64,000 nucleotides of DNA from Flavobacteriales bacterium (GTDB lineage: Bacteria; Bacteroidota; Bacteroidia; Flavobacteriales_F; PHOS-HE28), in assembly GCA_031371785.1 (NCBI GenBank), contig JANMKC010000018.1, forward strand, positions 4,266 through 68,265. Reading direction: 5' to 3'. Shown piece after piece: positions 1-55,999 of the stretch (positions are counted from its first letter, which is position 1; each line of letters starts with the position of its first letter). The translations under genes and the position numbers were made by a program. The notes below the pieces were generated by a model. It was not told the origin of the DNA. It saw only the letters and a list, made by a program, of their open reading frames with translations, and ran no database searches.

Positions 1-229
1 CCTCGAACTAGGTGAACTGATGTGCATGGATGCACTGGAGCGCAACGAAAGTTGCGGCGGTCACTTCCGCGAGGAGTTCCAAACCCCGGATGGTGAAGCG
101 CTGCGGGATGATGCGAAATACGCGCACGTCTCCGCATGGGAATGGACGGGAGATGCTGGTACTGCGAACCTGCACAAAGAGCCCTTGCAATTCGATGTGG
201 TGAAACTGACGCAACGCAGCTATAAGTAA
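1..229 (+). CDS. sdhA: succinate dehydrogenase/fumarate reductase flavoprotein subunit, C-terminal fragment (5' end outside window)
   Basis: C-terminal motif ...[24 protein letters not shown]... is typical of SdhA/FrdA; the gene is followed by an sdhB-like gene. Confidence 0.85.
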
Positions 230-240
230 TTAGGGTGATG

Positions 241-312
241 GAAGGGATAGAGGTAAGGGAGGTAAGGGAAGTAAGGGAGGCAATGGAGGTAAGGGAAGAA
301 ATGGATGTCAAG
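241..312. repeat. purine-rich GGTAAGGGA(A/G)G repeat block; left arm of an inverted repeat flanking the 330-794 gene
   Basis: gtaagggaagaaatggatgt at 286-308 matches the reverse complement of 808-830 at 21 of 22 positions; GGTAAGGGA units are reiterated. Confidence 0.7.
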
Positions 313-329
313 TACCAAGCACGGCGACC

Positions 330-794
330 ATGAACACAACCAACGATCCGACGGTCAGGGATTGGAACATCGAAGGCTATTTCGAAATGGGTGAGACGAT
401 TTCGGTTGTGGCCGAACCGGATGGCCGAAAGGTGAATGGTTTCAAGGATCTATGGGTGTGGCAGCAAGGCATGGTGCTGACGAACAAAGTCTATTCGCCC
501 ACGCGGAAATTTCCCAAAGAGGAGATGTACGGCCTAACATCGCAGTTGCGCCGAGCTTCTGTATCCGTTCCTTCCAATGTTGCTGAAGGCTGGGCGCGCA
601 ATCGAGTCGGCTTCTTTCAAATGGGACTGACCTATGCGCGCGGCTCTATCGCCGAGATCGAAACGCAACTCCTGATCGCCATCGATCAGCAATTCATCAC
701 CCCAGAAGAAACGAAGCCGGTCATCGATCTCTTGAACGGCCTCAGTTCGGCCTTGCTCAAATTCATCACCAAGCTGGATGTGAAGAGGCGATGA
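330..794 (+). CDS. four-helix-bundle protein (23S rRNA intervening-sequence protein family, PF05635-like)
   Basis: KDLWVWQQGMVL...KFPKEEMYGLTSQLRRASVSVPSNVAEG...ARGSIAEIETQLLIAIDQQFI matches the family signature; the first ~40 codons may not be translated. Confidence 0.85.
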   Translation: MNTTNDPTVRDWNIEGYFEMGETISVVAEPDGRKVNGFKDLWVWQQGMVLTNKVYSPTRKFPKEEMYGLTSQLRRASVSVPSNVAEGWARNRVGFFQMGLTYARGSIAEIETQLLIAIDQQFITPEETKPVIDLLNGLSSALLKFITKLDVKRR

Positions 795-799
795 GGGCG

Positions 800-839
800 C
801 TCCTCCCTTACATCCATCTCTTCCCTTACTTCCCTTACC
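800..839. repeat. right arm of the inverted repeat (CTTCCCTTAC units) flanking the four-helix-bundle gene
   Basis: reverse complement ggtaagggaagtaagggaagagatggatgt matches the left arm. Confidence 0.7.
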
Positions 840-1589
840 ATGAAACTGAATCTGAAGATCTGGCGCCAGAAAGGTCCGAACGACAAGGGCCAGATGAAGG
901 ACTATCCCGTGAGCAACGTGTCCGAGGACATGTCCTTCCTCGAGATGCTCGACGTGCTGAACGACGAGATCATTAGAAAGGGTGACGATCCGATCGCCTT
1001 CGATCACGATTGCCGCGAAGGCATCTGCGGAAGTTGCAGCCTCTTCATCAATGGCGAAGCGCATGGTCCGGGTCGCGGGATCACCACTTGCCAGTTGCAC
1101 ATGCGCAGGTTCACGGATGGCGACACCATCCATGTGGAACCTTGGCGCGCCAAGGCGTTCCCGGTGATCAAGGATCTTGCGGTGGATCGTGGCGCCTTCG
1201 ATCGTATTCAAGCGGCCGGCGGTTTCGTGAGCGTGAACACGAGCGGCAACCTCGTCGATGGCAATGCGGTGCCGATCCCGAAGGATGATGCTGATAAGGC
1301 CTTTGATGCTGCTACATGCATTGGCTGCGGCGCTTGCGTCGCGACTTGCCCGAACGGATCAGCGATGTTGTTCGTTGCGGCGAAAGTCTCACAATTCGCA
1401 TTGTTGCCCCAAGGCCGTCCTGAAGCCAAGTCGCGCGCGCTGGCGATGGTGGAGCAGATGGACAAGGAAGGCTTCGGCAATTGCAGCAACACAGGCGCGT
1501 GCGAGATCGAGTGCCCGAAGAACATCAGCTTGGAGCACATTGCGCGGATGAACAGGGAGTACTTGGCAGCGACGTTGACGAAGGAGTGA
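840..1589 (+). CDS. sdhB: succinate dehydrogenase/fumarate reductase iron-sulfur subunit
   Basis: 2Fe-2S and 4Fe-4S cysteine clusters: [37 protein letters not shown]. Confidence 0.9.
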
Positions 1590-1657: not shown

Positions 1658-3085
1658 GTGAAGCGGTATTCCCATCTTTTCATTCTCTGGCTTTTGCAAG
1701 GAACAGGTTCCGCGCAGACGCCCGAGCTATGGGGCATGACCTCTGGCGGAGGCACCAACCACCTCGGCAGCATATTCAGGATCTTCGGTGATGGCAGCGG
1801 GTACGAGACCATCTTCTCCTTCGACTCGCTCTCCGGCTACGGGCCGGAAGGCAGCTTGTGCCTGGCGAACGACGGGCTGCTCTACGGGATGACACGCTTC
1901 GGTGGGTTGTCCGACAGCGGCGCGGTATTCCGGATCGATCCAACCACAGGCGTGTACGACAAACTGCTCGACCTCCACGACACCATCGGCGCACATCCGT
2001 ACGGCGACCTGATGCAGGCGAGTGATGGTCTGCTTTATGGCATGACCTACGAGGGCGGGAATTGGCATCAAGGCACCTTCTTCAGCTATGAGATCGCCAC
2101 GGGCATGCATACTCGGCTGATCGACTTCACGGGCTACCTCGGCGCTTATCCGTTCCAGAGCGTGGTGCAGTCACCGGGGAACGGCAAACTCTACGGGATC
2201 ACCCGGTCGGGTGGCTACTTCAACAAGGGTTGCGTATTCAGCTATGACCTGGCAACCGGTCACGCGGAGCACGAGTTCTACGGCTTCGATGACCTGGTGG
2301 GAAAGTATCCCACGGGCAACCTGTGCATGGCCCCCAACGGATACTACTACGGCACTACCTCACAAGGCGGCCCTTGGCTCCAGGGGAACGTGTTCCGGTT
2401 CGATTCCACGGCGAACGAATGTGTGAACACCTACACGTTCCATGGCGTGTACGGCTCGGATCCGGAGGGAAGTCTGGTCGTTGGTGCGGATGGCAAACTA
2501 TACGGAACCACCGGTGGCGGCGGCGATCATGGCTATGGTACGCTATTCCGTTTCGCCACGTCGAGCAACGTGTTCGAGATCCTCCATGATTTCGGCGACG
2601 GCGGTACGGACGGTCTCGGGCCAAAAGGCAGCCTGCTGCTCGCAAGCGATGGGAACATGTACGGCACGACTTCGACCGGGTACGTCGGAGTGTCCGGTTC
2701 GGTCTTCAAATACGATCCAGGCGCGAACGCTTACTCCGTCATCCATCTTTTTGATGAGCCGGAAACAGCCCGGCCAGAAGGCAGCCTGATCGAAGTGAAC
2801 GCGCCGAACAGCATGGATGAAGCGGGCAGAGAACAAGCCGGGCTCGAAGTGTACCCGGATCCTACATCCGGGCCAGTGGTGGTGCGTTCCTCGAACGATG
2901 CCGGACGGATCCGGAACGTGCGGCTTTTCGACCTGCTCGGAATAGAGTTGATCGTTCCGGGAACCCGGGTGGTGATCGCACGGGCCTCCTTGGAACTGGA
3001 CCTCACAGGACTTGCGTCGGGCCAATACGTGGTGAAGGCGATTGTGGACGATGGTATCCGAAGATGCAAGGTGATGAAGGAGTAA
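1658..3085 (+). CDS. secreted repeat protein (GloVer-type G..LYGTT..GG repeats) with a T9SS type A C-terminal sorting domain
   Basis: GTG start gives a signal peptide KRYSHLFILWLLQGTGSAQ; at least 7 reiterated ...G(K/L)LYG(T/M)T..GG..G.G..F... units; C-terminus VYPDPTSG...VRLFDLLG...VVKAIVDDG is typical of a T9SS type A domain. Confidence 0.7.
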   Translation: MKRYSHLFILWLLQGTGSAQTPELWGMTSGGGTNHLGSIFRIFGDGSGYETIFSFDSLSGYGPEGSLCLANDGLLYGMTRFGGLSDSGAVFRIDPTTGVYDKLLDLHDTIGAHPYGDLMQASDGLLYGMTYEGGNWHQGTFFSYEIATGMHTRLIDFTGYLGAYPFQSVVQSPGNGKLYGITRSGGYFNKGCVFSYDLATGHAEHEFYGFDDLVGKYPTGNLCMAPNGYYYGTTSQGGPWLQGNVFRFDSTANECVNTYTFHGVYGSDPEGSLVVGADGKLYGTTGGGGDHGYGTLFRFATSSNVFEILHDFGDGGTDGLGPKGSLLLASDGNMYGTTSTGYVGVSGSVFKYDPGANAYSVIHLFDEPETARPEGSLIEVNAPNSMDEAGREQAGLEVYPDPTSGPVVVRSSNDAGRIRNVRLFDLLGIELIVPGTRVVIARASLELDLTGLASGQYVVKAIVDDGIRRCKVMKE

Positions 3086-3210
3086 GACCTTCGTCCGGCA
3101 ACAACGGGAACGTGGCGCACGTCATTTCGATCATCGGAACATGGATGGCGGAAGCCGGTCGGCTTAGTTTCGGCCCAAATGTCCTCCATCACATCGGGCC
3201 GACCGATCCA

Positions 3211-3260
3211 GAGCAAACTCCCCCACGTTCGCACCACCCTCTTCACGGTGATGAGCAAGC
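3211..3260. repeat. degenerate upstream copy of the aminotransferase 5' coding end (direct repeat, copy 1)
   Basis: 47 of 50 nt identical to 3995-4044 (gagcaaactcccccacg...cttcacggtgatgagcaagc). Confidence 0.8.
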
Positions 3261-3299
3261 CGGTCGGCAACGGCGCAGCGGTCGCTCATACCTTTGAAC

Positions 3300-3755
3300 A
3301 TGCGCTTGTACTTGGACACTTCGGTTTACGGCGGCTACTTCGAGCCTGAGTTCGAGAAGTGGACGAAGCCGCTTTTCCAAAAGATCATGGACGGCGATCA
3401 CAAGTTGCTGCGTTCGCCATTGGTGGATATTGAATTGCAGGGTGCGCCAGTCCATGTCCGGAACCTCTTGACGGTGATACCTCAACGTTGTGTGGAACAT
3501 ATAGAAACCGGCAAGCAAGTGGATGACCTTGCCTTGGAATACGTCAAGGCCAAGGTTGTCGGAGAGACCAGTTTCACCGACTGCCAACACATCGCGTTGG
3601 CCACGCTCGTTCACGCGGATGTCCTCATCAGCTGGAACTTCAAGCACATCGTGAACGTGCCGCGTATCCGTGGTTACAACTCCGTGAACATGCGGCTTGG
3701 ACTTGGCCTGTTGGAGATGCGCACACCCATTGAACTTTTTGCACATGGCAGCTAA
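3300..3755 (+). CDS. PIN-like domain protein, possible toxin
   Basis: N-terminal LYLDTSVYGG (first PIN acidic residue), later acidic positions LVDIEL, TDCQHIALA, and a C-terminal WNFKHIV motif; TTG at 3294 or ATG at 3300. Confidence 0.5.
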   Translation: MRLYLDTSVYGGYFEPEFEKWTKPLFQKIMDGDHKLLRSPLVDIELQGAPVHVRNLLTVIPQRCVEHIETGKQVDDLALEYVKAKVVGETSFTDCQHIALATLVHADVLISWNFKHIVNVPRIRGYNSVNMRLGLGLLEMRTPIELFAHGS

Positions 3756-3963: not shown

Positions 3964-5126
3964 TCGTTCGTTCTTCTGCTTTGCCCGTCGTGAAGAGCAA
4001 ACTCCCCCACGTCGGCACCACCATCTTCACGGTGATGAGCAAGCTGGCGCAGGAGTGCGACGCCATCAATCTGAGCCAGGGCTTTCCGGATTTTCCGATC
4101 GACGAGAAACTGAGCGACCTCGTGCATGCCGCTATGAACGCGGGTCACAACCAGTACGCGCCCATGCCGGGCCTGCCCGCGTTGCGCGAGGCGATCGCTG
4201 CGAAAGTGGAACGGCTCTATGGCTTCAGCTATGATGTGGAGACGGAAGTCACGGTGACGGCCGGTGGAACGCAAGCCATTTTCACGGCGATCGGTGCGGT
4301 GGTGCAACGCGGTGATGAAGTGATCATCGTGGACCCTGCGTACGACTGCTATGCACCGACGGTGGAACTCTTCGGAGGAACGCCCGTGCATGTGCGGCTT
4401 GGTGGCAATATGAAGTTCGATGCCGATGCGGTGCAACGGGCCATCACACCGAAGACGCGCGTGCTGATGATCAACACGCCGCACAATCCGGCTGGTACGA
4501 TCCTGCGCGACGCGGACATGAAGCGCATCGCCGATATGCTGCGCGGCACGGACATCATCCTGTTGAGCGATGAAGTGTACGAGCATCTCATCTTCGAGAA
4601 CGAGGAGCACGCTTCGGTGATCCGCTATCCGGAGCTGCGCGAACGCGCCTTCGTGATCTTCAGCTTCGGCAAGGTGTTCCACGCCACCGGCTGGAAAATG
4701 GGCTATGCGCTCGCGCCGAAAGAGTTGATGACGGAGTTCCGGAAAGTGCACCAGTTCAATGTGTTCAGCGTGAACACCCCGATACAGCACGCGCTCGCCG
4801 AATACCTCAAGGACCCGATGAACTACGAGGGCGTGTCCAGCTTCTACGCCGACAAGCGCGACCGCTTCCTGATCGGTCTGCGCGTATCGCGCTTCACGCC
4901 ACTGGCCTGCGAAGGCAGTTACTTCCAACTGGCCGACTACAGCCGCATCAGCGATGAACCTGATATCGATTTCGCGAAGCGCTTGACGAAGGAGTTCGGT
5001 GTCGCCGCGATCCCGATCAGTGTGTTCTACAAGGATCCACCGAAGGACCAACGCATCCTGCGCTTCTGTTTCGCGAAAGAGGGTGAAACGCTGGACAACG
5101 CCATCGAGAAGCTATGCGCGATCTGA
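3960..5126 (+). CDS. ybdL: PLP-dependent aminotransferase, class I/II (YbdL-like methionine aminotransferase)
   Basis: TTIFTVMSKLAQE...NLSQGFPDFP...YAPMPGLPALREAIA...SFGKVFHATGWKMGY (PLP-binding lysine context). Confidence 0.85.
   Translation: MIVRSSALPVVKSKLPHVGTTIFTVMSKLAQECDAINLSQGFPDFPIDEKLSDLVHAAMNAGHNQYAPMPGLPALREAIAAKVERLYGFSYDVETEVTVTAGGTQAIFTAIGAVVQRGDEVIIVDPAYDCYAPTVELFGGTPVHVRLGGNMKFDADAVQRAITPKTRVLMINTPHNPAGTILRDADMKRIADMLRGTDIILLSDEVYEHLIFENEEHASVIRYPELRERAFVIFSFGKVFHATGWKMGYALAPKELMTEFRKVHQFNVFSVNTPIQHALAEYLKDPMNYEGVSSFYADKRDRFLIGLRVSRFTPLACEGSYFQLADYSRISDEPDIDFAKRLTKEFGVAAIPISVFYKDPPKDQRILRFCFAKEGETLDNAIEKLCAI
3995..4044. repeat. direct repeat copy 2 (the functional 5' coding end of the aminotransferase gene)
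   Basis: see 3211-3260. Confidence 0.8.
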
Positions 5127-5908
5127 GGGTGACGCTCGTGCAGAACATGCTGCACTGGGAAGATGCGGCAACGAACCGTGCCATGTTCGCGGAGAAGCTC
5201 GCCGCATTGAAGGGCACCACGGACCTCATCGTGCTACCGGAAATGTTCACGACCGGTTTCAGCATGCGCAGCAGGGAACTCGCGGAGACAATGGATGGCG
5301 TTACCGTGAAGTGGATGATTGAGCAGGCGCTTGCATTGAACGCCGCGATCTATGGCAGTGTGATCATCGCCGACGGCGGCAACCATTTCAATCGCGGGCT
5401 GTTCGTTACGCCGTCAGGACAAGTCACAGCATACGACAAGCGCCACCTCTTCCGCATGGCGGAGGAGAAGGACAACTATGCGCGCGGCGACAAACGTGTG
5501 ATCGTGGAACTGAACGGCTGGCGGATCCTCTTGCAAGTGTGCTACGACCTTCGCTTTCCCGTCTTCGCACGCTCCCGCAGTATTGCGGGACGCAGCGACT
5601 ATGACGCGATCATCTACGCGGCCAACTGGCCGGAGGCTCGGCGTTACCCATGGAGCCAATTGCTGATCGCCCGCGCGATCGAGAACCAGTGCTGTGTGAT
5701 CGGCGTGAACCGCGTGGGCATGGATGGAAAAGGACACCACTACACAGGCGATTCCGTGGCGATCGATGCGAAAGGACAGGTGTTCGCTTCGTGCGATGCG
5801 GGCCAGGAACGTATCATCACTTGCTTGCTCGATCGCGCTGCGCTCGACGACTTCCGTGAGAAGTTCCCGGTGGAAAAAGACGCTGACGATTTCGAACTGC
5901 GCCTTTAG
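5114..5908 (+). CDS. yafV: carbon-nitrogen hydrolase family amidohydrolase (YafV-like omega-amidase)
   Basis: nitrilase-superfamily E-K-C catalytic triad contexts (PEMFTTGF..., KRHLF, CYDLRFP); 13-nt overlap with the upstream aminotransferase gene. Confidence 0.85.
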   Translation: MRDLRVTLVQNMLHWEDAATNRAMFAEKLAALKGTTDLIVLPEMFTTGFSMRSRELAETMDGVTVKWMIEQALALNAAIYGSVIIADGGNHFNRGLFVTPSGQVTAYDKRHLFRMAEEKDNYARGDKRVIVELNGWRILLQVCYDLRFPVFARSRSIAGRSDYDAIIYAANWPEARRYPWSQLLIARAIENQCCVIGVNRVGMDGKGHHYTGDSVAIDAKGQVFASCDAGQERIITCLLDRAALDDFREKFPVEKDADDFELRL

Positions 5909-32315: not shown

Positions 32316-32561
32316 ATGATCAGGAAGTTCGCAGTGCTCGCCACCACGGCGGCTCTCATGGTTGGCTGCGGCGGCGCCAGCGAGGAGAACATGCAAGACA
32401 AGATGAAGGCCGCTCAGGACAGTGTCAACAAGATGATGGAGCAGGCCGCAGCCGATATGAAGGCCGCGACCGACGCCGCTGCTGACAGCGCCAGCAAAAT
32501 GATGAACGCCGCCGGTGACAGCGCTTCCAAAATGATGGAGGACGCCAAGACGACCAAGTAG
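32316..32561 (+). CDS. small lipoprotein with reiterated (D/A)SASKMM motifs
   Basis: lipobox LMVGCGG; three ...AAxDSASKMM(N/E)... repeats. Confidence 0.5.
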
Positions 32562-34256: not shown

Positions 34257-34736
34257 TCACAGGTCGCTCAGTTGGTGTATGAGCACGTGGCCGTCCCTCA
34301 ACAGTTCGAGCCCCGCCGGGTCCTTGTACGCATCGAGGTAGACAAGCCGCTTGATGCCAGCCTGCAGGATCAACTTGCTGCATTCCCTGCATGGTGAGTG
34401 TGTCAAGTAGAGCGTCGCTTCCCGTGCGTTGTTCGTGCTGCGTGCCACCTTCATGATCGCATTGGCTTCGGCGTGAAGAACGTACCAGTGCGTGTTCCCG
34501 TTGGCGTCTTCACAATCGTTGGGAAAGCCCGTGGGCGTACCGTTGTAGCCATCGCTGATGATCATGCCTTCCTTCACGATCAGCGCACCGACCTGCTTCC
34601 GCGTGCAATGGCTGAGCTTGCTCCACTCGAGCGCCATCTTCATGTAGGCGCGGTCGTAGCGCTCCTGTTTGGAGGGGTCGGAGTAGGTAAGCGAATCCTT
34701 CTGCATCGGCTCGATCGGCGCGCATTGCACGGTCAC
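34257..34736 (-). CDS. dCMP deaminase (CMP/dCMP deaminase zinc-binding family)
   Basis: HAEANAI...SPCRECSKLI zinc-binding motifs. Confidence 0.85.
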   Translation of the reverse strand: MTVQCAPIEPMQKDSLTYSDPSKQERYDRAYMKMALEWSKLSHCTRKQVGALIVKEGMIISDGYNGTPTGFPNDCEDANGNTHWYVLHAEANAIMKVARSTNNAREATLYLTHSPCRECSKLILQAGIKRLVYLDAYKDPAGLELLRDGHVLIHQLSDL

Positions 34737-34778
34737 CGATCATCTGATCATCCGATCGTCCGATCATCTGATCACTTG
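34737..34778. repeat. tandem GATC(A/G)TC-type heptamer repeats adjacent to the tRNA
   Basis: catctgatcatccgatcgtccgatcatctgatca. Confidence 0.6.
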
Positions 34779-34780
34779 TG

Positions 34781-34862
34781 TACCCAGGGCGGGAGTCGAA
34801 CCCGCACGATTTGCATCACTGGTGTTTGAGACCAGCGCGTCTACCAATTCCGCCACCTGGGT
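34781..34862 (-). tRNA. tRNA-Leu, anticodon CAA
   Basis: ACCCAGG/CCTGGGT acceptor stem; GGCGGAATTGGTAGACGC D-arm; CT-CAA-AC anticodon loop; long variable arm; GGTTCGACTCC T-arm; aligns closely with E. coli tRNA-Leu(CAA). Confidence 0.9.
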
Positions 34863-55902: not shown

Positions 55903-55999
55903 CTGCGCTCGACCTGACAAATACGGCTGCGCTCGACCTGACAAATACGGCTCCGCTCGACTTGACAAATACGGCTCCGCTCGGCTTGACAGATGATCG
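55903..55999. repeat. tandem 24-bp direct repeats (about 4 units), each containing a (T/C)TGACA motif
   Basis: ctgcgctcgacctgacaaatacgg twice exactly, then ctccgctcgacttgacaaatacgg, then a degenerate fourth unit. Confidence 0.85.

Follow-up and report, generated by a model that had tools for sequence, protein, structure and literature searches.

A four-helix-bundle gene between complementary tandem-repeat arrays in the sdhA-sdhB spacer of a Flavobacteriales bacterium

In a 64,000-nt stretch of DNA from a Flavobacteriales bacterium (GenBank assembly GCA_031371785.1, contig JANMKC010000018.1, positions 4,266 to 68,265 of the forward strand; hereafter, the window), sdhA and sdhB are separated by a cassette in which a gene for a four-helix-bundle protein lies between two complementary tandem-repeat arrays. 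It is a long-resident, selected cassette of the intervening-sequence (IVS) type in an mRNA operon, and it is one case of a packaging rule that holds for most of this very large gene family. We favor, at about an even chance of being correct, the more specific reading that the cassette is embedded in the operon and has the same design as the 23S rRNA IVSs that carry an open reading frame (ORF), i.e., a functional Avd-like gene between complementary tandem arrays. By analogy, the cassette would work like a 23S rRNA IVS; by location it is not one, and it is not a transposon with terminal inverted repeats (TIRs). An earlier note on this DNA had described sdhA and sdhB as split by a unit bearing a PF05635-like gene, and this is borne out, the unit being 610 bp long (230-839).

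The cassette protein belongs to the PF05635/TIGR02436 family. The ORF matches PF05635 (23S_rRNA_IVP) with E = 9e-30 and 103.4 bits (cutoff 33.8), and the NCBIfam model TIGR02436, "four helix bundle protein", with E = 3.7e-28 and 97.9 bits (cutoff 24). The sole solved structure matched by sequence is Xcc0516 (PDB 2GSC; E = 4.9e-19). The AlphaFold2 (AF2) monomer model has a predicted local distance difference test (pLDDT) score of 81.6 and contains helices at residues 42-58, 63-89, 95-119 and 125-153; its N-terminal 35 residues are of low confidence. In a Foldseek comparison, the model matched 2GSC with a template modeling (TM) score of 0.92 and a root-mean-square deviation of 1.0, also superposed on BT_0352 (2RLD), and matched Avd, a protein of diversity-generating retroelements (DGRs), with TM scores of 0.81-0.87 (4DWL and the 8UB-series entries). 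The family is characterized by the motif GxxRxxxSxxxNxxE (Zhang & Ye 2013, PMC3936711). Residues R75, S79, N83 and E86 are invariant among 23 homologues, and the motif match is limited to RxxxSxxxNxxE, with Q72 taking the position of the leading G in this clade. It should be noted that an N-terminal extension of ~38 aa (window 330-443), TNDPxxRDWNxEGYxExGxxISVVAEPDGR, is conserved in the Flavobacteriales clade (23 homologues) and absent from the family core. Among the carriers of the cassette gene at the sdh site, the ratio of nonsynonymous to synonymous substitution rates (dN/dS) is 0.03-0.08 and synonymous sites are saturated (dS ~1-3), indicating that the gene is functional and under strong purifying selection, and that the insertion is old.

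The 5' arm of the cassette consists of ~8 units of 9 nt (GGTAAGGGA and variants) and is 85% purine; the 3' arm consists of ~4 units (TCCCTTACC and variants), is the complement of the 5' arm, and is 13% purine. Both arrays have a GC content of 49%. The best pair in the inverted-repeat search, 261-299 versus 801-839, extends over 39 nt with 87% complementarity, so that 261-299 is the core pairing segment of the 5' arm. A family of 9-nt direct repeats spans 226-306, and Tandem Repeats Finder (TRF) reports period-9 arrays at 250-305 (5.2 copies) and 804-838 (3.9 copies). The unit GGTAAGGGA is found five times in the window versus 0.13 expected, and four of these five copies flank the four-helix-bundle gene. 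The RNAduplex prediction for the two arms contains 40 pairs at -64.3 kcal/mol (z = -5.8 compared to shuffled sequences), including a perfect helix of 20 bp (261-280 with 820-839). Folding of the cassette as RNA, which the earlier note had proposed, was performed on 215-860: the minimum free energy structure pairs both arms (z = -4.4). The inverted repeats announced in that note are thus real, with displaced coordinates, as 286-308 matches 810-832 (21/23) rather than 808-830, and the arms are longer than was claimed. The 5' array also contains four GGG tracts with spacings of 10, 6 and 6 nt. Translation of the arrays was considered and rejected: a stop sits between the 5' array and the ATG at 330, and arrays elsewhere have periods of 7 or 8, which excludes coding. 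An independent public assembly (Logan) is identical to the window across 1-829; therefore, the arrays are not an assembly artefact.

Table 1. Features at the sdhA-sdhB junction (positions in the window)
Feature	Position	Strand	Evidence or remark
sdhA 3' end (flavoprotein subunit)	2..229	+	PF02910 Succ_DH_flav_C, E 2.5e-18
Entire inserted cassette	230..839	+	occupies complete sdhA-sdhB spacer; 610 bp
5' arm, purine-rich tandem array	235..306	+	repeat search, TRF, composition
Four-helix-bundle protein gene, 154 aa	330..794	+	PF05635 / TIGR02436, Avd-like fold
3' arm, pyrimidine-rich array	801..839	+	inverted-repeat search, TRF, RNA duplex
sdhB (iron-sulfur subunit)	840..1589	+	PF13085 and PF13183 (Fer2_3/Fer4); orthologues 79-92% identity

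The cassette fits tightly between its neighbors (Table 1): the stop codon of sdhA is the TAA at 227-229, and the last base of the 3' arm directly precedes the sdhB ATG. The GC content of the cassette is 52.6% versus 58.8% for the whole window, and not above 60%, as had been stated for the genome. No sigma-70-type promoter or intrinsic terminator was found in 1-1700, in a scan that does not cover Bacteroidota promoters, and the Bacteroidota-type motif TAnnTTTG is absent from 230-329, as read by eye. An Rfam search of 1-1600 returned nothing above E = 0.7, and the cassette is flanked by sdhA and sdhB, not by a 23S or 16S rRNA gene. The PADLOC defense-system models had no match to the cassette protein at E <= 0.01.

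We compared the sdhA-sdhB junction in relatives by locating the contigs of sdhB homologues. This presence/absence comparison, also proposed in the earlier note, revealed two empty sites, with no gene between sdhA and sdhB: L090 (sdhB 83-84% identical) has a spacer of 7 nt, and L091 (sdhB 79-80% identical) has one of 70 nt. We considered the latter spacer as a possible cassette remnant and found this unconvincing, as it holds only a 7-bp GTCGACC hairpin. Three relatives (L008, L009 and L092) carry the window's cassette at this junction, with proteins 82-90% identical and homologous arms. In a neighbor-joining tree of sdhB (eight taxa, without support values), the four cassette carriers group as a single clade, with the empty sites at its base. 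Between the window and L008, the 3' arm is identical at 32 of 39 positions (manual count on the alignment), despite the saturated dS. The upstream array differs in length among the carriers (~8 units in the window, ~24 in L092). The cassette takes the place of the entire spacer found in L090, and no target-site duplication (TSD) was seen, as the junctions TAA/TTAGGGTG and CCTTACC/ATG have no direct repeat in common. As judged from these comparisons, the cassette was inserted into a short sdhA-sdhB spacer in an ancestor of a Flavobacteriales group; from then on, its inheritance has been vertical, with strong purifying selection. Two further relatives have other genes at the same place. In L088 (sdhB 88%), a different family member, 39% identical to the window protein, is enclosed by arms with their own unit (GGTGAATGG / CCATTCRCC). 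In L089 (sdhB 86%), there is a gene for a 250-aa S-adenosylmethionine (SAM)-dependent methyltransferase (2239-2991) without repeat arms; the start of this gene and the sdhA stop overlap. As the sdhA-sdhB junction is occupied by one of two different four-helix-bundle cassettes or by a methyltransferase gene in these genomes, it looks like a recurrent insertion point.

The clade of 154-aa proteins to which the window gene belongs occupies four classes of sites, which follow protein similarity to the window: sdhA/sdhB (82-100% identity), the membrane-fusion protein (MFP) and pump genes of a resistance-nodulation-division (RND) system (77-79%), a beta-lactamase-family gene and a PolB-type exonuclease gene (62-71%), and sufS/sufE (50-61%). 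The RND, beta-lactamase/exonuclease and suf loci are not present in the 64-kb window. In all four classes, purine-rich upstream arms with a period of 8-9 nt (GGTRA-type units) are found, with the complement downstream, and the arm units are akin but distinct (GGTAAGGGA, GGTGAAGGAGG, GGTGAAAGT and GTGATAAAG); the window's own unit also occurs at a different locus (L010). Because purine arms of 8-9 nt are present in every site class, though period 9 is rare in the family as a whole, the arm type is inherited with the gene. This co-inheritance and the unit in L010 speak against an origin of the arms in the target site or in a hairpin that the host already had. The comparison thus indicates that gene and arms move as a single unit, rarely and over long time scales. 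At both sdh cassette sites (FHB-a and FHB-b) and at the suf site L003, there is no gap (0 nt) between the 3' arm and the downstream start. Some relatives (L001:4447-4755, L092:1441-1617 and L010:3455-3535) have a second purine-rich array past the cassette stop, and the window copy is without it. There, the C-rich 3' arm can pair either with this nearby array, as a local hairpin, or with the far 5' array, so that the gene is enclosed; this could be an alternative-structure switch.

We examined the layout of the family in 80 loci from species-representative genomes (Acidobacteriota, Planctomycetota, Chloroflexota, Verrucomicrobiota, Nitrospirota, Bacteroidota and others). Complementarity between 300 nt upstream and 250 nt downstream of the gene was determined by Smith-Waterman scoring, and same-length pseudo-genes positioned elsewhere in the same loci served as the control. 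The median score was 46 versus 22 in the control (Mann-Whitney p = 6e-38); 90% of the loci were above the 95th percentile of the control, and 80% above the 99th. A replication on 65 non-redundant metagenome loci gave 86% and 72%, respectively. Significant periodicity was found for 106 of 117 arms, with best periods of 7 (65 arms), 14 (20), 8 (18) and 9 (11). Within 420 nt of the gene, the density of short-period arrays is 7.7 times that in the remainder of the loci. In 85-91% of loci, the upstream arm is the G-rich one when read on the sense strand of the gene, regardless of the orientation of the neighbors, and G:C versus C:G pairs in the arms number 1045 to 390. The 5' arm starts at a median of -3 nt from the stop codon of the upstream gene; the 3' arm starts at a median of 7 nt past the cassette stop and ends at a median of 15 nt ahead of the next start codon. 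Arm units vary by locus and even within single genomes (L027, L043/L084 and L045), and complementarity is retained; therefore, the pattern is a signature of a selected stem and not of transposase-binding ends. Taken together, the sequence data indicate that the stem-plus-gene layout is the family norm across phyla. An Omnitrophica metagenome-assembled genome (MAG; L027) has three cassettes in less than 6 kb (130-657, 3001-3351 and 5106-5555), each with a different arm unit and one on the opposite strand.

A blind search elsewhere in the loci returned inverted pairs of arrays with matching units; all three pairs with a loop of ~390-510 nt had a further family gene inside, and 11 others, with loops of 26-214 nt, were hairpins without a gene. 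In one gene-less hairpin (L082:3055-3291), GGGCTTGT / CAAGCCCA arrays of ~9 units apiece enclose a loop of 87 nt. A cassette with arms built from the almost identical unit GGCTTGT is situated ~1.4 kb away, and the hairpin may have been derived from it. On cyanobacterial plasmids, the same gene-in-arms layout is found with heptamer units. The cassette at L182:1409-1897, on plasmid pNe_5 of Nostoc edaphicum, has TAGGGAG/GGGGAGT arms and lies between the beta and alpha genes of ribonucleotide reductase (RNR), antisense to both. Cassettes of N. punctiforme and Calothrix have GGGTGTA arms, and a cassette between cas6 and cas4 of Anabaena 90 has GGTGACA arms, while two gene copies of PCC 7120 that adjoin transposases are without arms. 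None of the 12 loci without clear ORF neighbors is inside rRNA. Viral contigs yielded only five matches to the family and were dropped as a source or control. Two other properties of the family turned out not to be informative. Co-orientation with the neighbors (86% and 75%) is only modestly above what is usual for adjacent bacterial genes, and we rejected it as proof of operon dependence. Stop trinucleotides are modestly enriched in the arrays (0.073 versus 0.054 per nt) and occur in all frames in only 34% of 5' arms, so that a role as three-frame translation stops is not a defining property.

A few other repeats and RNAs were recorded along the way. An 8-nt tandem array (CCGATCAT/CTGATCAT, 4.9 copies) at window positions 34736-34774, without a complementary partner array nearby, lies between tRNA-Leu(CAA) (34780-34862, minus strand) and the start of a minus-strand ORF (34257-34736). 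The window also has a 24-nt unit repeated 3.6 times with 95% identity (55906-55991) and a 33-nt unit repeated twice (32473-32537). Two copies of the Acido-Lenti-1 small RNA (RF01687) are found near a cassette in a KSB1 MAG (L086:3995-4040 and 4568-4613).

How would such a cassette work? The sdh operon mRNA probably includes it, because there is no evident promoter or terminator, and no TAnnTTTG motif. In this transcript, the G-rich 5' array and the C-rich 3' array would pair as a ~40-bp double-stranded RNA stem, which would loop out the gene and place the stop of sdhA close to the start of sdhB. A single-stranded transcript easily adopts a stem with a loop of 500 nt; a DNA cruciform of this kind does not arise easily. 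The length of the predicted stem (20 bp perfect, 40 bp in total) should suffice for an RNase III substrate, and RNase III probably cuts it, by analogy with the IVSs of Coxiella and Leptospira. Such cleavage would free the cassette mRNA, and the host messages would remain usable, making the insertion tolerable, and the looped-out stem would explain the long residence of the gene inside essential operons. The repeat arms themselves may have been produced by slippage under selection for any long stem, as arms of this kind would grow, shrink and still pair whatever the register. With the G-rich arm first, the transcript might avoid presenting a C-rich, untranslated Rho-loading site while the partner of this site has yet to be synthesized, which is our speculation.

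Several points weigh against this RNA-based explanation, beginning with the circumstance that the RNA-level function of the stem is inferred. Selection for an RNA stem on the sense strand should enrich G·U-type mismatches; in the arms of the 80 loci, there are 131 G·U-type and 138 A·C-type mismatches, i.e., no enrichment. Therefore, complementarity may be maintained in the DNA, or individual pairs may be under selection too weak to be seen. Both neighbors are on the same strand in only 67% of cassettes, as determined by a crude ORF heuristic, and the Nostoc cassette between the RNR genes (L182) is clearly antisense to its neighbors. In addition, the stem would bury the start region of sdhB, and this could be a hindrance rather than a help to sdhB translation.

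The lack of G·U enrichment is what is expected if RNA pairing does not filter mismatches, as would be the case for an element that acts as DNA. Inverted arrays could function as single-stranded DNA (ssDNA) hairpins or as G-quadruplex/i-motif structures in replication or recombination, like integron attC sites, IS200/IS605 ends or repetitive extragenic palindromic (REP) sequences, and template-switch (quasi-palindrome) correction, rather than RNA selection, would keep the arms complementary. The strand polarity (G-rich arm upstream in 85-91% of loci) would suit a strand-specific ssDNA mechanism, G-rich heptamer arrays of this kind form G-quadruplexes in vitro (PMC4692102), and the window 5' array has its four GGG tracts. 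However, cruciform extrusion is implausible for a loop of ~500 nt, the cassette has no associated recombinase or transposase, the neighbors being sdhA and sdhB, the cassettes have been static at their site over evolution (dS saturated), and the sole experimentally studied relative is processed as RNA (PMC4990558). We therefore regard a DNA-level element as unlikely, albeit with a chance that is not negligible. A somewhat less probable proposal, compatible both with the RNA stem and with the DNA-level element, is that the encoded four-helix-bundle pentamer would bind the arms, the repeat units being its putative binding sites; in this way, the protein would control its own message or assemble a ribonucleoprotein on it, as Avd does with the DGR RNA. 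The AF2 model matches Avd in the DGR ribonucleoprotein structures, arms and gene are co-inherited through changes of site, and the periodicity of the arms suits multimeric binding; yet the arm units differ widely while the proteins keep their conserved core motif, which argues against sequence-specific recognition.

The earlier note had suggested a mobile insertion resembling a miniature inverted-repeat transposable element (MITE). Insertion as such is supported by the empty sites in L090 and L091, and gene and arms have changed site as one unit; the MITE/TIR identity and a recent date did not hold up. For a recently mobile MITE- or transposon-like element, with the inverted repeats as terminal repeats for transposition, one could cite these empty sites, the different occupants of the junction in L088 (another family member) and L089 (the methyltransferase), and the related cassettes in four different operons. 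Conversely, no TSD was seen and a search for further copies of the gene or arms, which the note had also put forward, found none in the 64-kb window; the arms are slippage-prone arrays of variable length (~8 units in the window, ~24 in L092) that differ between cassettes even in one genome (L027, L043/L084 and L045), and the orthologous cassettes are old (dS saturated). We consider this explanation very unlikely. Equally little can be said for a secondary invasion, in which the gene entered a pre-existing spacer hairpin similar to the short tandemly repeated repetitive (STRR) sequences, and the arms belong to the host locus. Gene-less inverted arrays (loops 26-214 nt, 11 cases) do exist in the same genomic neighborhoods, hairpins of this kind are abundant in Xanthomonas (70 convergent pairs; PMC4692102), and rRNA IVSs without an ORF exist as well. 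However, the empty sdh sites (L090 and L091) are without such a hairpin, the rare purine-rich arm type of 8-9 nt tracks the protein clade into four unrelated operons, and different cassettes in one genome carry different units; the probability of this scenario is, in our view, slight.

In the literature covered in full text, with most subscription journals outside this coverage, we found no paper linking the protein family to repeat hairpins (STRR, GGGNATC) and no description of the cassette layout outside rRNA. A bolder, and rather improbable, generalization is that the four-helix-bundle (Avd-like) proteins are the protein partner of one widespread class of repeat hairpins that comprises ORF-bearing rRNA IVSs, STRR hairpins and the heptamer inverted arrays of Xanthomonas. 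Cassettes with a gene would represent the complete form, the many hairpins without one would be derived or dependent forms, and the protein would act on arm RNA or DNA; this action may be processing, protection, or a retro-type or template-switch spread. Apart from this generalization, three old puzzles merge into one question: the role of the very common S23/IVS/four-helix-bundle proteins, the origin of rRNA IVSs, and the nature of the abundant tandem-repeat hairpins with 7-9-nt units (STRR, GGGNATC) that lie between the genes of bacterial operons. If a gene-in-stem device indeed lets a small gene live in essential operons without breaking them, it would be a general rule of bacterial genome architecture and a natural blueprint for the insulation of inserted genes. 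In annotation, cassette boundaries are marked by the arrays, which also account for the family genes found inside sdh, suf, RND, RNR and cas operons.

Genes of this family were noticed previously between cas genes (PMC3936711) and also, on other occasions, in rRNA insertions of bacteria of the Candidate Phyla Radiation (CPR). Among the known systems, the 23S rRNA IVSs of Leptospira and Coxiella burnetii are alike in that a PF05635 ORF lies between complementary termini, which pair as a long stem. In Coxiella, the IVS contains a stem of 28 bp, an S23p ORF, and two to three tandem GACAGAT heptamers upstream of the ORF, the number of which differs between strains, with an RNase III site at the first repeat (PMC4990558). 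Short tandem repeats of variable copy number are, therefore, present in the 5' part of this IVS as well, and, like the window cassette, it is a co-linear insert in a host transcript without an evident promoter of its own (PMC4990558). The differences are in the host, which is the spacer of an mRNA operon here and not helix 25 or 45 of rRNA; in the arms, which are arrays of 9-nt units and longer (39-75 nt) here; in the gene, which is decaying in Coxiella, whereas that of the window is under strong purifying selection; and in RNase III cleavage, which was shown in Coxiella and is predicted here from the stem length.

The resemblance to STRR and G-rich heptamer arrays is also close. In Xanthomonas and Nostoc, heptamer arrays (GGGNATC / GGGGAYT) are located between co-oriented ORFs, often as convergent pairs; the G-rich strand comes after a stop codon and the C-rich one ahead of the next ORF, and the arrays are transcribed and can fold as G-quadruplexes in vitro (PMC4692102). 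For STRR hairpins, which are cyanobacterial, a role in transcript stabilization or translational coupling has been suggested at the hupS-hupL junction (PMC2670836). Both kinds consist of short tandem units in pairs that are often capable of forming a stem-loop, are transcribed, and vary in unit number (PMC4692102, PMC2670836); the window cassette also lies between co-oriented ORFs as a convergent pair, with the same order of G-rich and C-rich strands, and on cyanobacterial plasmids it is precisely heptamer arrays of this sort that flank the gene. In contrast, these arrays were described without a gene in the loop and without reference to the PF05635 family, and the unit in the window is 9 nt rather than 7 (7 or 14 in 85/117 arms family-wide). 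Avd of DGRs shares the four-helix-bundle fold (TM scores of 0.81-0.87) and comes from a related family (PMC10053308). It is a pentamer bound to RNA and a reverse transcriptase, whereas the window gene has sdhA and sdhB as neighbors, with no adjacent reverse transcriptase or template/variable repeat pair. MITEs and small TIR elements have the small size, inverted termini and intergenic position in common with the window unit, which differs from them by a conserved gene, by termini that are tandem arrays whose sequence varies across the family, and by being long-lived at one site, with no TSD seen and not multicopy in the window.

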